Below are positions 1,232-28,993 of a stretch of 64,000 nt of DNA, piece after piece. The notes beneath the pieces are model-generated. The model had not been told where the DNA came from and did no database searches. It worked only from the letters and a program-made list of their open reading frames with translations. A program made the position numbers and the translations under genes. The DNA is from Eledone cirrhosa (lineage: Eukaryota): assembly GCA_964016885.1 (NCBI GenBank), contig OZ024756.1, forward strand, positions 28,024,001-28,088,000, read 5' to 3'. The number at the start of each line of letters is the position of its first letter. The first letter of the stretch is position 1.

Positions 1232-1319
1232 TCCTCTTGATAAGTTGGCAGACCTCGCAAGGACTCTATATCTTTGATATATTGTTTTTGTTTATGCCAC
1301 GAAACTACGTAGTCGAGGA
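1232..1319 (+). ncRNA. Type I hammerhead ribozyme motif, U3-A8 core
   Basis: Stem I TCCTC/GAGGA; core TTGATAA (CUGANGA with C3-G8 replaced by U3-A8); stem II GT(T)GGCA/TGCCAC around a 44-nt loop; GAAA; palindromic stem III ACTACGTAGT; GTC triplet, predicted cut after 1314. Confidence 0.8.
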
Positions 1320-1822
1320 ATTTAGGAGCAGTTTAGGTATGATACATTTTATTACTAATTATATCTAAATGTTTCTTCTCTCTTCATAATGTATTTTTAA
1401 CTCTGATACTGGTTCAGTCTGGTTCAAACTGAATTGGTCTGTCCCAGTCATTCATTGAGCAACATCGGTGAAGTTGGCACCCTTAACTCGCAGTTGGGTG
1501 CGGATGCATTCATGTATATATGTGTGTGTCCGCATGTATCTGTGTGTTTCTAAATATATTAATAACTCCCTCTGGTCGAGCAATCTTTGAAGTGTGGGGA
1601 CAACTGGAAAGCTTCCATTACTCGTACTTCTCGCCTTCTTCACTACCTCTTCTACGGCCTCGATATGAATACCCCCTCCGCCTCCGTGGTATTTTCTTTG
1701 TGGTTATAAGAGGCTTAGCTCTGTTTCTCGACCGTTATATCGCGTGACTATCTCCCCCTCCGCCTTTTGGGATTCTTTCTCACGTCGTGTAGACGCGTTC
1801 TTGAGACTAGTAAAATGAGGTA

Positions 1823-1910
1823 TCTTCTTGATAAGTTGGCAGACCTCGCAAGGACTCTATATCTTTGATATATTGTTTTTGTTTATGCCACGAAACTACG
1901 TAGTCGAGGA
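1823..1910 (+). ncRNA. Hammerhead motif, array copy
   Basis: As 1232-1319; a C>T at 1825 gives a U-G wobble in stem I. Confidence 0.75.
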
Positions 1911-2413
1911 ATTTAGGAGCAGTTTAGGTATGATACATTTTATTACTAATTATATCTAAATGTTTCTTCTCTCTTCATAATGTATTTTTAACTCTGATAC
2001 TGGTTCAGTCTGGTTCAAACTGAATTGGTCTGTCCCAGTCATTCATTGAGCAACATCGGTGAAGTTGGCACCCTTAACTCGCAGTTGGGTGCGGATGCAT
2101 TCATGTATATATGTGTGTGTCCGCATGTATCTGTGTGTTTCTAAATATATTAATAACTCCCTCTGGTCGAGCAATCTTTGAAGTGTGGGGACAACTGGAA
2201 AGCTTCCATTACTCGTACTTCTCGCCTTCTTCACTACCTCTTCTACGGCCTCGATATGAATACCCCCTCCGCCTCCGTGGTATTTTCTTTGTGGTTATAA
2301 GAGGCTTAGCTCTGTTTCTCGACCGTTATATCGCGTGACTATCTCCCCCTCCGCCTTTTGGGATTCTTTCTCACGTCGTGTAGACGCGTTCTTGAGACTA
2401 GTAAAATGAGGTA

Positions 2414-2501
2414 TCCTCTTGATAAGTTGGCAGACCTCGCAAGGACTCTATATCTTTGATATATTGTTTTTGTTTATGCCACGAAACTACGTAGTCGAGG
2501 A
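2414..2501 (+). ncRNA. Hammerhead motif, array copy
   Basis: Same sequence as 1232-1319. Confidence 0.78.
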
Positions 2502-25100: not shown

Positions 25101-26205
25101 AATTCCATATATGGTCAAAGTGATTGTCAAAAATCAGTAGTAATTCTGTGGTTGCAAATTAGTAGGGGAGATGGTGGCTAAACCTGCCAGTAGGAGAAAG
25201 AGGGGAGGGGGTGGAGTAGACCCAATCAAGCGTTGGTAGTGCCAGCTACAGCTGGGCATGAGGTCAAAGAAGATACAGGGGAGGGGGAGGGGGAGGAAGT
25301 CGGAACGGTAGGTAGAACAATGGAGGGTAGAAATAGGAAAGAAAAAATACTGAGAGTGAAGAAAAGCAAATAAGTGTAAAGAAAAAAGTAAAGTAAATTA
25401 AATTCTACGACCTAGGTGTCAGGCTATTTTTAGGCGAGAATAAAATAAAGAAAGACAGGAAGAAGTAAATAAATAAATAAATAAATAAATAAGGAAATAA
25501 GTAAGAGAACTAGGTGGGACGGATAAGGCAAGGACCCTTTTAAGAGGTATAAGTACGTAAATGATACGGTGACGGGTCAACAAAAGGGGCCAAAATACTA
25601 AAGAGACTACCACGAAATAAACAATAAAGGTTTCCATCCCGGGCCAGCAACGACCCAGTGCAGCAAAGTGAACTTGTACGAGATAATAATTCTGAGTCCC
25701 GAGAAAAATATATACTAATGCTAACTCTAAAAGATCTAAAACAAGCTACATGGAAGTTCGTACGAAATAAAGGTAGAATACGGAGAAATAAATTCAGAAT
25801 CCACCCCGCCCAGAAGAAAAGCGAAGCAAGAAATACTGAAACGAAAAAATAAGGCATAAGTGCCACTAAGAAATATAGAGGGCACAGAGAATAGTGGGAG
25901 CGGTCGGAAAAAGGGGGAAAGTATCCGGGGTCTAAGCCAACTGCTATAAAGGGCGGAGTCCGCCAAATCTATCAAAGACTAGGGGAGGGGGGGGGGGTAC
26001 TAAGGCTACATGGGGCCAAAGGGCAGCCTCGGGTGGGCGAGAAAAGACGCCGACAAAGGAGAAGAGCTGGGGTAGAAGGACAAAGGAGAGAGGGGGGAAG
26101 GAAATAAAGGAAGCGATAAAAGAATACAAAGAAGATCTTACGTCTTCCTTGGCAAGCAGGGGTTACCCATTGCAAAATCGGCAACTGGGGTGTTATAGCC
26201 CTAGT

Positions 26206-26774
26206 CTACCCCCCCCCCCCCCCCGGGTCATTATGGGGTTTGAGGGCGAGGTAAGTCCTACGCAATCTATGTTTACATGCAGTAACCAGTTCATCTTTCT
26301 TGTTTAGGAGTTGGTCCGTCGAAAACAGCATTTGTAAAGTTTCCTCCGAGCATAAATTGCACGGACGGCGTCCTCCCGTGTAAGAATTGGCTCTGGACAG
26401 TAATCTCCAAGTGAGATCATAGGTGATGTTGTTGTCCTTGAGGTCCCATATGTGGCCCGAAAGTGTAGTGGCGTGACGCCGGGCCGGGTTTCGGAAGGTA
26501 TGTCTATGTTGGTATAGCCGGGTCTTGAAGTCACATGCGGTAAGTCCTATATAGGCTTTGTTGGAGGTATCCGTCCTCACGTTGCACTGGTAGATCACAT
26601 TACGGTCTCTGCATCTATTGTCGAGTGGGCAAATAGATCTATCCGGGCAGTTACACCTCCTGGTCGGTTCTCCACTGCTAATTAGGTTATTTCTGCCATC
26701 GGGGTTGAGTTTTTTGTTGTTAGAGGAGACGATGTTTTGTGCGAAGTTTGGTGTAGTGCTGTAAGAGAGTTTGA
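26206..26774 (-). pseudogene. Inverted duplicate of the Penelope GIY-YIG endonuclease region
   Basis: Translation matches the C-terminal part of ORF 26737-27798 (IYQCNV...YIGLT...CNLCSEE...CKH). Confidence 0.85.
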
Positions 26775-27798
26775 CTGGGGATTTAAAATAACCCTACAAA
26801 CGTCCCTGACCCGAGTAAACTTCCTGGACGTAACCCTCGACCTCGAAAACGACCTGTACTATCCATACAGGAAACCTAATGACAATCTGCACTACATCCA
26901 CCGCCGATCAAACCATCCTAGGAACATCACAAACAACCTGGTCAAAAACATCTCCCTCCGCATATCCCGTTTGTCAGCTAATGAGCGGATATTCGATGAA
27001 CATGCGCCTTATTACAACCAGGCCCTCAAGCGGAGTGGTTTCCGGGAGGAAATATCCTACTGTCCAGCCCCCATTAGCGGAACCAGCAGGAGACACCGCC
27101 GCTCACGCAATGTAACATGGTTCAATCCTCCCCACAACGCAGAGGTGACTACTCCCATCGGGAAACTATTCTTTAGGCTCATTGAAAAACACTTCCCATT
27201 ACAACACCGCTACCACAACATAATTAACAAAAATACCATCAAACTCTCTTACAGCACTACACCAAACTTCGCACAAAACATCGTCTCCTCTAACAACAAA
27301 AAACTCAACCCCGATGGCAGAAATAACCTAATTAGCAGTGGAGAACCGACCAGGAGGTGTAACTGCCCGGATAGATCTATTTGCCCACTCGACAATAGAT
27401 GCAGAGACCGTAATGTGATCTACCAGTGCAACGTGAGGACGGATACCTCCAACAAAGCCTATATAGGACTTACCGCATGTGACTTCAAGACCCGGCTATA
27501 CCAACATAGACATACCTTCCGAAACCCGGCCCGGCGTCACGCCACTACACTTTCGGGCCACATATGGGACCTCAAGGACAACAACATCACCTATGATCTC
27601 ACTTGGAGATTACTGTCCAGAGCCAATTCTTACACGGGAGGACGCCGTCCGTGCAATTTATGCTCGGAGGAAACTTTACAAATGCTGTTTTCGACGGACC
27701 AACTCCTAAACAAGAAAGATGAACTGGTTACTGCATGTAAACATAGATTGCGTAGGACTTACCTCGCCCTCAAACCCCATAATGACCCGGGGGGGTAG
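26775..27798 (+). pseudogene. 5'-truncated Penelope ORF: RT C-terminus/thumb, Cys linker, GIY-YIG endonuclease
   Basis: VNFLDVTLDL, YRKPNDNLHYIHRRSNHP, CNCxxxxxCPLDNRC linker, VIYQC...YIGLT..FKTR...H, CNLC..E, LLNK..E...CKH. The frame is open but starts at the inversion junction, downstream of the RT catalytic DD motif. Confidence 0.9.
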
Positions 27799-28899
27799 AC
27801 TAGGGCTATAACACCCCAGTTGCCGATTTTGCAATGGGTAACCCTGCTTGCCAAGGAAGACGTAAGATCTTCTTTGTATTCTTTTATCGCTTCCTTTATT
27901 TCCTTCCCCCCTCTCTCCTTTGTCCTTCTACCCCAGCTCTTCTCCTTTGTCGGCGTCTTTTCTCGCCCACCCGAGGCTGCCCTTTGGCCCCATGTAGCCT
28001 TAGTACCCCCCCCCCTCCCCTAGTCTTTGATAGATTTGGCGGACTCCGCCCTTTATAGCAGTTGGCTTAGACCCCGGATACTTTCCCCCTTTTTCCGACC
28101 GCTCCCACTATTCTCTGTGCCCTCTATATTTCTTAGTGGCACTTATGCCTTATTTTTTCGTTTCAGTATTTCTTGCTTCGCTTTTCTTCTGGGCGGGGTG
28201 GATTCTGAATTTATTTCTCCGTATTCTACCTTTATTTCGTACGAACTTTCATGTAGCTTGTTTTAGATCTTTTAGAGTTAGCATTAGTATATATTTTTCT
28301 CGGGACTCAGAATTATTATCTCGTACAAGTTCACTTTGCTGCACTGGGTCGTTGCTGGCCCGGGATGGAAACCTTTATTGTTTATTTCGTGGTAGTCTCT
28401 TTAGTATTTTGGCCCCTTTTGTTGACCCGTCACCGTATCATTTACGTACTTATACCTCTTAAAAGGGTCCTTGCCTTATCCGTCCCACCTAGTTCTCTTA
28501 CTTATTTCCTTATTTATTTATTTATTTATTTATTTACTTCTTCCTTTCTTTCTTTATTTTATTCTCGCCTAACAATAGCCTGACACCTAGGTCGTAGAAT
28601 TTAATTTACTTTACTTTTTTCTTTACACTTATTTGCTTTTCTTCACTCTCAGTATTTTTTCTTTCCTATTTCTACCCCCCATTGTTCTACCTACCGTTCC
28701 GACTTCCTCCCCCCCCCTCCCCTGTATCTTCTTTGACCTCATGCCCAGCTGTAGCTGGCACTACCAACGCTTGATTGGGTCTACTCCACCCCCTCCCCTC
28801 TTTCTCCTACTGGCAGGTTTAGCCACCATCTCCCCTACTAATTTGCAACCACAGAATTACTACTGATTTTTGACAATCACTTTGACCATATATGGAATT

Positions 28900-28993
28900 A
28901 CCCCTTGAGAAGATCGGCTATTTAAATACCAGGATAAATTTTCATTTAGTCCAGAATTAGCCGTCGAAACGGCTTCAGCTCAGCTGTCGGGGT
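28900..28993 (+). ncRNA. Type I hammerhead motif, U3-A8 core, in the Penelope 3' terminal region
   Basis: Stem I ACCCC/GGGGT; core TTGAGAA; stem II GA(T)CGGCTA/TAGCCGTC around a 37-nt loop; GAAA; stem III ACGGC/GCTGT; GTC triplet, predicted cut after 28988. Confidence 0.8.

Follow-up and report, generated by a model that had tools for sequence, protein, structure and literature searches.

Non-coding hammerhead repeats in the Eledone cirrhosa genome carry the insertion signature of Penelope-like elements and are likely retrozymes mobilised in trans

The question raised by a 64-kb stretch of the Eledone cirrhosa genome (hereafter the window; C17:28024001-28088000, on contig OZ024756.1 of the 3.0-Gb assembly GCA_964016885.1) is why two elements of unrelated sequence, a 591-bp tandem repeat and a coding Penelope-like element (PLE) referred to here as Hydra-A, contain putative hammerhead ribozymes of the same atypical design. 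A first-pass annotation of this DNA had proposed that the design, a U3-A8 core with a bulged U in stem II and a long loop 2, defined a distinct hammerhead subclass marking a (TA)n-targeting PLE lineage, and that the repeat was either a non-autonomous partner of such an element or the pseudo-long terminal repeat (pLTR) of a related one. The evidence presented here points to a repeat which is a retrozyme, likely cut and circularised, with a Hydra-clade PLE as the likely source of the enzyme that reverse-transcribes it into (TA)n tracts, and with the hammerhead of Hydra-A having evolved separately.

Both strands of the window were analyzed by an exhaustive descriptor scan. The repeat motif (TCCTC-TTGATAA-57 nt-GAAA-CTACGTAG-TC-GAGGA) was found in seven copies and the PLE motif (ACCCC-TTGAGAA-54 nt-GAAA-17 nt-TC-GGGGT) in two, with sequence and spacing exactly as first annotated. 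Both contain the core NUGANNA / GAAA / UH with helices I-III, and a U-A pair was present at positions 3-8 in 9/9 copies; on this descriptor evidence, and on the double changes described below for the relatives of the repeat, both are predicted to be type I self-cleaving hammerhead ribozymes, as had been suggested. The repeat copies lie at 62-149 and 653-740 on the minus strand and at 1232-1319, 1823-1910, 2414-2501, 3005-3092 and 3596-3683 on the plus strand, the stem I of the 1823-1910 copy reading TCTTC (a single C>T which gives a U.G pair). In the copy at 1232-1319, stem I is formed by 1232-1236 and 1315-1319, the core occupies 1237-1243 and GAAA 1301-1304, and a palindromic helix III (1304-1313) precedes a predicted cut after C1314. 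The Hydra-A copies lie at 25007-25100 on the minus strand and 28900-28993 on the plus strand, where helix I is predicted to extend (GGAA/TTCC) past an asymmetric loop; N7 was freely variable in Hydra-A hammerheads.

The descriptor search was then carried over the whole genome, as the first reading had advised. The PLE-type pattern gave 4,070 matches and the repeat-type pattern 871, with none for the corresponding reversed patterns, and the motifs therefore cannot be attributed to chance. An Rfam scan of the window gave 149 matches at E<=1, none of them to a hammerhead family and almost all of them microsatellite look-alikes of microRNA families; standard models therefore miss both motifs, and the expectation that they would also evade CUGANGA descriptors was borne out. 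The descriptor scan also picked up an AT-rich CTGAGGA candidate, which occurs three times in an intron-like segment that is duplicated. Other repeated candidates in the genome have a canonical CTGATGA core (L029, L072:5719, L086, L092, L130, L133 and L152), some of which combine a long loop 2 with a helix III that is short and palindromic.

The evidence for how the repeat moves comes from its ends. In the window, an inverted 5'-truncated half (1-832, minus strand), which extends another 179 bases beyond the first base of the window, has its 3' end at unit position 139 beside (TA)n, while the direct half (830-3758, plus strand) consists of four full 591-bp units followed by unit positions 1-565, the second fixed 3' end; a (TA)n target tract (3756-4271) lies to its right. 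The repeat is dispersed and young, the best 40 of 885 genome candidates being 100% identical to the 221-base query. In 33 loci (the window, 12 loci from earlier searches and 20 drawn from the first-listed repeat-type matches) 56 3' ends were scored, 28 at approximately unit position 139 and 26 at approximately 565, with one locus edge and one broken copy accounting for the remaining two. (TA)n adjoined 54/56 of these ends. Of 23 loci with two ends, 21 had one end of each kind and none had two alike. Loose (AT)n ends at the same two unit positions were also recovered from contigs of a public sequencing run. Two fixed 3' ends bounding a 'tail' are a PLE signature, and their presence on a non-coding element is genomic evidence for mobilisation in trans. 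The first-pass view of the unit as a non-autonomous partner of PLE machinery is thus upheld by the paired fixed ends in (TA)n, together with the covariation among its relatives. Copies of the repeat's wider clan and Hydra-A ends were often observed in one (TA)n tract (L015, L094, L264, L274 and L312). In L135, near 3560, the repeat runs straight into a Hydra-A 3' end; this junction was left out of the counts, as a nested insertion may have produced it.

With respect to sequence variation, one haplotype was common to all units of an insertion and to both sides of the inversion, with few unit-specific changes added. Five variants were common to all units of L326, and a 3-nt deletion was present in all four full units of L329; the 279T of the window repeat was absent from other loci covering that site and nearly absent from the public run. 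This pattern of one haplotype per insertion suggests a monomer template. The longest ATG open reading frame (ORF) of the monomer is 75 aa and its GC content is 41.6%, below the upper limit of 45-50% for retrozymes; folded as a circle, it gave z = -4.6 against 20 shuffles. Each tandem unit holds one type I hammerhead, and every array retains intact hammerheads. As judged from these features, the repeat is a young non-coding element fitting the non-long-terminal-repeat (non-LTR) retrozymes.

Animal retrozymes accumulate as circles (PMC7229834). Like published non-LTR retrozymes (PMC7229834, bioRxiv 10.64898/2026.07.22.740005), the repeat is non-coding and low in GC, is built of tandem units that each contain a single type I hammerhead, occurs in dispersed arrays, has a well-paired predicted circle, and coexists with PLEs that are the proposed mobilisers. 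Those elements are usually 150-450 bp (PMC7229834), whereas the repeat is 591 bp, a length inside the 51-972 bp of the more recent survey (bioRxiv 10.64898/2026.07.22.740005), and has a U3-A8 core, a long helix and loop 2, and a predicted pseudoknot. In the parts of the two papers covered here, the evidence for mobilisation consists of co-occurrence and pLTR similarity, and no paired ends, inverted halves or (TA)n targeting are described. The closest parallel for the ends is Poseidon of Anolis (PMC11167929), which likewise has a tail delimited by two fixed 3' ends and is primed on both strands of AT-rich targets. In that study, PLE enzymes were found to cleave AT-rich DNA on both strands and to begin cDNA synthesis from two internal positions of the RNA; these start sites, demonstrated in vitro, explain the PLE tail. 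Poseidon is autonomous and acts on its own RNA, whereas in the repeat the signature is found on a non-coding RNA, with 165-nt spacing.

A more far-reaching scheme is held more tentatively, at slightly less than an even chance: a circular hammerhead RNA of 591 nt would parasitise a Hydra-clade PLE, whose dimeric enzyme would prime on both (TA)n strands from two fixed positions in the circle and copy the template by rolling circle, giving head-to-head arrays with a single haplotype and both kinds of end. In the main interpretation, transcripts of the repeat arrays would be cut by their hammerheads after GUC, helped by a pseudoknot between the 5' flank and loop 2 and by palindromic helix III pairing between neighbouring units, and the monomers would be ligated into circles. 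The PLE protein would nick both strands of a (TA)n tract and prime two cDNAs, one from unit position 565 and one from position 139, comparable to the start sites of the Anolis PLE. Each cDNA would then circle the template a variable number of times before the two were joined head to head.

The helices of the repeat hammerhead could be examined by comparison within its clan, which was enlarged with looser patterns, relatives being accepted by flank alignment; one loose pattern was at chance level (221 matches against 296 in the control) and was used only for finding older clan members. Among 39 sequences, 88.8% of cells were paired compared with 34-44% for slid partners, although the shuffle control on these counts cannot be read as a probability, given the relatedness of the rows. 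Double changes were found at 11/18 pairs, in helices I, II and III and at pair 3-8. The latter was U-A in 34 sequences, C-G in three and U.G in two, and pair 10.2-11.2 was C-G in 20 and U-A in 17; in the first 100 listed repeat-type rows, U3-A8 was kept in 98. Helix III was palindromic in several different clan sequences, through double changes. Duplex energies for three such sequences ranged from -12.9 to -16.9 kcal/mol while the isolated strand formed no hairpin, which favours helix III pairing between neighbouring units. Pairing of this kind is known for newt and axolotl hammerheads.

A pseudoknot is predicted in every unit of the repeat, with the 5' flank at 1225-1230 pairing to loop 2 at 1252-1257 (1225-1257, plus strand, in the first direct unit). 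Across the clan, it is represented by TGAGG in the 5' flank and CCTCA in loop 2. In 34 rows anchored on the motif itself (five unanchorable rows were left out), 159/170 cells were paired, as compared with 45-72 when slid and 130 at an offset of +2. Its fifth pair was A-U in family D and G-C elsewhere, and its sixth A-U in family D and U-A in family F. Stem I/stem II pseudoknots are reported in approximately 40% of hammerheads of all three types (PMC3088659); compared with that account, the one predicted here belongs to a clan of animal retrozymes, and its partners are loop 2 and the 5' flank of stem I.

The second element, Hydra-A, is represented in the window by an inverted 5'-truncated copy with the short 3' end beside (TA)n (24992-26774, minus strand) and a direct 5'-truncated copy with its 3' untranslated region/pLTR and tail (26775-29085, plus strand). 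The direct copy begins with an ORF remnant (26775-27798, plus strand) encoding the end of the reverse transcriptase (RT), the thumb, a CxCx5C linker and a GIY-YIG-type endonuclease; no family was matched in a Pfam search of this remnant. The tail of approximately 78 nt between the short and long 3' ends occupies 29009-29085 on the plus strand and is followed by a (TA)n target tract (29086-29156). At two paralogous sites, approximately 14797-14860 and 40420-40497, which belong to paralogous segments of a local tandem duplication, the tract is present and the Hydra-A insertion absent.

Hydra-A is young and intact elsewhere. A protein search of the genome scored 150 places, all 99-100% identical, many of them in open frames of 784 codons repeated approximately every 3.53 kb. 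The full ORF from the first ATG is 717 aa (L073), with intact copies in tandem. It has RWR for RWK, DKT for DKG, a CNCPDRSIC linker (CxCx5C), and CNLC (CxxC) and CKH (CxH) motifs which surround the catalytic E and N of a C-terminal endonuclease. The same RWR, DKT, CxCx5C, CxxC and CxH are described for the Hydra clade of PLEs with a C-terminal endonuclease (PMC8557442), as are (TA)n insertion, a pLTR hammerhead and a 5'-truncated copy in inverted orientation, one end of which has a tail. Units of that clade are generally below 3 kb with a canonical hammerhead, features described as typical and not as defining, whereas the Hydra-A unit is approximately 3.5 kb, with a variant core and a tail of approximately 78 nt. 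Among 107 distinct Hydra-A 3' ends, 61 were short with TA, 27 long with TA, 16 other and three read through, so that 88/107 were inserted into (TA)n, and 9/11 inverted pairs had one short and one long end; two-site 3' ends correspond to the known PLE tail (PMC3846280, PMC11167929). The element at 25-29 kb is accordingly classed as a (TA)n-inserted PLE, assigned to the Hydra clade from protein motifs, and on its being a (TA)n-targeting PLE the first-pass annotation was right.

The hammerhead of Hydra-A behaved differently from that of the repeat. A 22-mer at helix III is present in approximately 60,900 copies, but a core 20-mer some 60 nt upstream in only approximately 7,000, and truncation seems to pile up inside the hammerhead. 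Many of the helix III copies are tiny inverted pairs approximately 45 bp apart. The stems of Hydra-A were conserved without covariation. In stem II, G10.1-C11.1 and a 2x1 loop were conserved and the second pair was variable: in 40 distinct sequences, 10.2-11.2 was A-U in 16, U.U in 11, C.U in 11 and other in two. The bulged U after two stem II pairs which had been annotated for both motifs was therefore present in the window copies and failed as a property of the Hydra-A family, where A-U was found in only 16/40. A8 was nearly fixed (6,939 A8 versus 56 G8), and the third U appeared invariant partly because the search patterns imposed it. C3 was present in 25 of the first 100 listed A8 rows, where it creates a C3.A8 mismatch that is common in older subfamilies and absent from the youngest, and in only 10/56 G8 copies, no more than the 25% background, both counts being tallied from listed rows; there is therefore no 3-8 covariation inside Hydra-A. 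A C3-G8 subfamily was considered and rejected, as its ten copies scatter over different subfamilies. In the same 100 rows, C3.A8 occurred five times in both halves of one insertion, and subfamilies with mismatched cores have therefore spread. No pseudoknot was found in Hydra-A when sought by eye. With a pseudoknot in the repeat and an extended helix I in Hydra-A, the two ribozymes are predicted to differ, probably, in tertiary design.

At the loop 3 base of Hydra-A (window position 28976 in the plus-strand copy) a recurrent G>C change was noted, with 1,645 non-G against 59,215 G copies. The bias towards C is small (59 C, 26 A and 15 T in the first 100 non-G rows), and the two halves of an insertion frequently disagree at this base. 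The change might arise by template slippage on a short direct repeat.

More than one PLE could supply the enzyme. Hydra-B, a second young Hydra family (L154-L183, L320-L325), is 41% identical to Hydra-A in the compared region and has two (TA)n ends and an Asn-rich insertion between RT and endonuclease. Its candidate hammerhead has C3-G8, a helix II hairpin of more than 100 nt, a 9-bp stem I and a palindromic helix III; this candidate is weaker, with a 10.1-11.1 mismatch and low predicted weight, and was found by eye after two scripts had missed it. The decayed fragment of another Hydra family was seen at L072:8257-9270, approximately 0.7-1.7 kb before the window start. Two apparent matches were rejected, namely a profile match at E=0.006 which covers the Hydra-A hammerhead and TA tract and has high composition bias, and a Hydra-B look-alike of the repeat short end which was not significant. 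Hydra-A is the coeval candidate partner, and Hydra-B, other Hydra fragments and Naiads are possible as well.

A number of observations weigh against the interpretation of the repeat as a PLE-mobilised retrozyme copied from circles. The tails, of 165 nt in the repeat and 78 nt in Hydra-A, exceed the 30-40 nt published, and eight of nine predicted Xenopus retrozyme dimers gave no cleavage in vitro in the data reported in bioRxiv 10.64898/2026.07.22.740005. Local folding of the motifs gave z values of -1.4, -0.4 and -0.4, a weak support alone, and the hammerhead fold had only 0.3-0.6% of the ensemble weight in the monomer when the pseudoknot was left out. The paired fraction of the pseudoknot is partly circular, being anchored on the motif, with few independent events, and falls to 77% in the unadjusted alignment. 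A clan profile searched against the non-coding DNA of Hydra-A and Hydra-B gave no convincing homology, and the partner family is therefore not assignable by sequence; Naiad PLEs likewise prefer (TA)n (PMC8557442). Finally, a homogeneous source array read linearly would also yield shared haplotypes. An enzyme which copied uncut multimeric transcripts of homogeneous arrays, with the hammerhead incidental or a 5' trimmer, would account for much of the same pattern, including the intact hammerheads kept in every array. It would fit with the report that PLE insertion in vitro does not require cleavage by the hammerhead (PMC11167929) and with the spread of C3.A8 subfamilies of Hydra-A. Such linear copying is nevertheless unlikely, in our estimate, as the variants private to an insertion and present in all of its units need a monomer bottleneck at some step, and the clan has kept U3-A8 and, via double changes, a palindromic helix III.

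The explanation offered by the first-pass annotation, one inherited hammerhead with U3-A8, bulge and long loop 2 marking a (TA)n PLE lineage and its partner, is improbable and already largely refuted. In its favour, both young families share the three features as well as GUC cut sites and (TA)n targets. The combination is found in none of the Hydra rows of File S2 that were available (PMC8557442), which all have CTGA cores and short loops where Hydra-A has U3-A8, a 2x1 loop and a long loop 2, and in none of the 36 metagenome hammerheads described below. In addition, the two elements match over a C-rich stretch of 29 nt situated 140-190 nt upstream of their cores, with a score of 33 compared with a maximum of 31 in shuffles. 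Against it, the three features dissociate inside the repeat clan. In families C (10 rows) and E (3 rows), U3-A8 and a long loop occur with a mostly perfect, unbulged stem II, family D has C3-G8 in 3/5 rows and U3.G8 in 2/5 with a perfect stem II and long loop, and family F (21 rows including the window) combines U3-A8 with the bulge. In a tree of 26 rows with a midpoint root only, family F formed one side of a branch (support 83/99, not starred). The simplest reading is that the bulge was gained once within the clan, where it looks derived. A long helix or loop 2 is likewise not tied to U3-A8, since it occurs with C3-G8 in family D and probably in Hydra-B.

Metagenome loci were also compared. 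Of 77 Hydra-like loci, 36 had a hammerhead downstream of the ORF, compared with three matches on reverse strands, and many of the other 41 are contigs ending soon after the ORF. Pair 3-8 was C-G in 33 of these hammerheads, U-A in two and G-C in one, and no bulge or long loop was found in any of the 36. The locus with the G3-C8 core (L199) is sister to a C3-G8 locus (L217) on the protein tree. On that tree of 38 Hydra-like proteins, comprising the metagenome loci with a hammerhead and two families of the E. cirrhosa genome, the U-A core needs three separate changes, and a single change was found in no bootstrap tree; the two long branches from the E. cirrhosa genome join on it, and this join may be false. 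U3-A8 as a lineage marker is also weakened by the literature. Natural C3-G8 to U3-A8 covariation is known (PMC3088659), and a U3-A8 variant of the PLE hammerhead, with approximately 1,300 hits, is linked to Cercyon of Schistosoma (PMC4209133). Together with the lack of 3-8 covariation inside Hydra-A and the probable difference in tertiary design, the shared U3-A8 and bulge are best read, from the sequences compared, as convergence in a tolerant motif and not as a lineage marker.

Several properties of the two motifs are those described for PLE hammerheads in PMC4209133, namely a long helix II, a short helix I, a conserved G10.1-C11.1 and a palindromic helix III, with a bulge in helix II in the D. 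virilis element. In that study the usual extra nucleotide lies between 9 and 10.1, whereas in the E. cirrhosa motifs the asymmetry follows 10.1 or 10.2, and helix III is of full length, unlike the published examples. Both motifs belong to a known kind, being predicted type I hammerheads whose core variant is already published, and so do the elements that contain them, one a Hydra PLE and the other a non-LTR retrozyme.

The remaining explanation, in which the unit would be a pLTR separated from a coding PLE family that was not seen and multiplied in place as a satellite, is very improbable. In its favour, many retrozymes match pLTRs, 24/57 Xenopus retrozyme families being reported to match known elements, nearly all PLEs (bioRxiv 10.64898/2026.07.22.740005), and Hydra protein fragments lie near 5/20 older loci (L137, L139, L150, L309 and L310 among those fetched). 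Against it, these fragments are not joined to the units as an ORF, young units are continuous head to tail, subfamilies down to approximately 70% identity (L138, L139, L147 and L318) are also unit-to-unit tandems, and the copies are scattered through the genome, have fixed ends of their own in (TA)n and show no local expansion. A remote pLTR origin of the 591-bp unit is possible.

Other features of the window were noted as well. From 5000 to 48100, a segment of 11-14 kb is tandemly duplicated approximately four times. The segments contain similar cysteine-rich open frames with variable stretches (10250-10849, 21638-22237, 36164-36763 and 47353-47991), which we take to resemble short-chain collagen C4-like proteins; a Pfam search of the first of these frames gave no match. 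Each segment also contains an imperfect palindrome of approximately 213 bp (6149-6361, 17765-17978, 31838-32050 and 43897-44109). At 50495-53593 there is an element resembling a long interspersed nuclear element (LINE), in which frames for an endonuclease and an RT (RVT_1, E 7e-31) are accompanied by C2H2-like motifs at the C-terminus.

Since 2020, PLEs have been proposed as mobilisers of animal retrozymes from co-occurrence and pLTR similarity. To that proposal the repeat adds a PLE-specific integration signature in 21/23 two-ended insertions. Literature searches returned no PLE integration signature on a retrozyme, no one-haplotype pattern and no pseudoknotted U3-A8 clan, although supplements might hold similar cases; as far as these searches show, all three are new here. 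The genome also contains thousands of hammerheads beyond the reach of Rfam and CUGANGA descriptors. That the retrozyme keeps its 3-8 pair while the PLE tolerates C3.A8 bears on whether the hammerhead matters to the PLE. Both the retrozyme and its candidate enzyme are young and intact, and the published in vitro PLE assay could address trans-mobilisation and the copying of circles. If the rolling-circle scheme is true, the repeat would be the first non-LTR retrozyme to have left a readable record of its integration chemistry in its insertions, and it would come with a pseudoknotted U3-A8 hammerhead and with a partner ORF that is intact and coeval.

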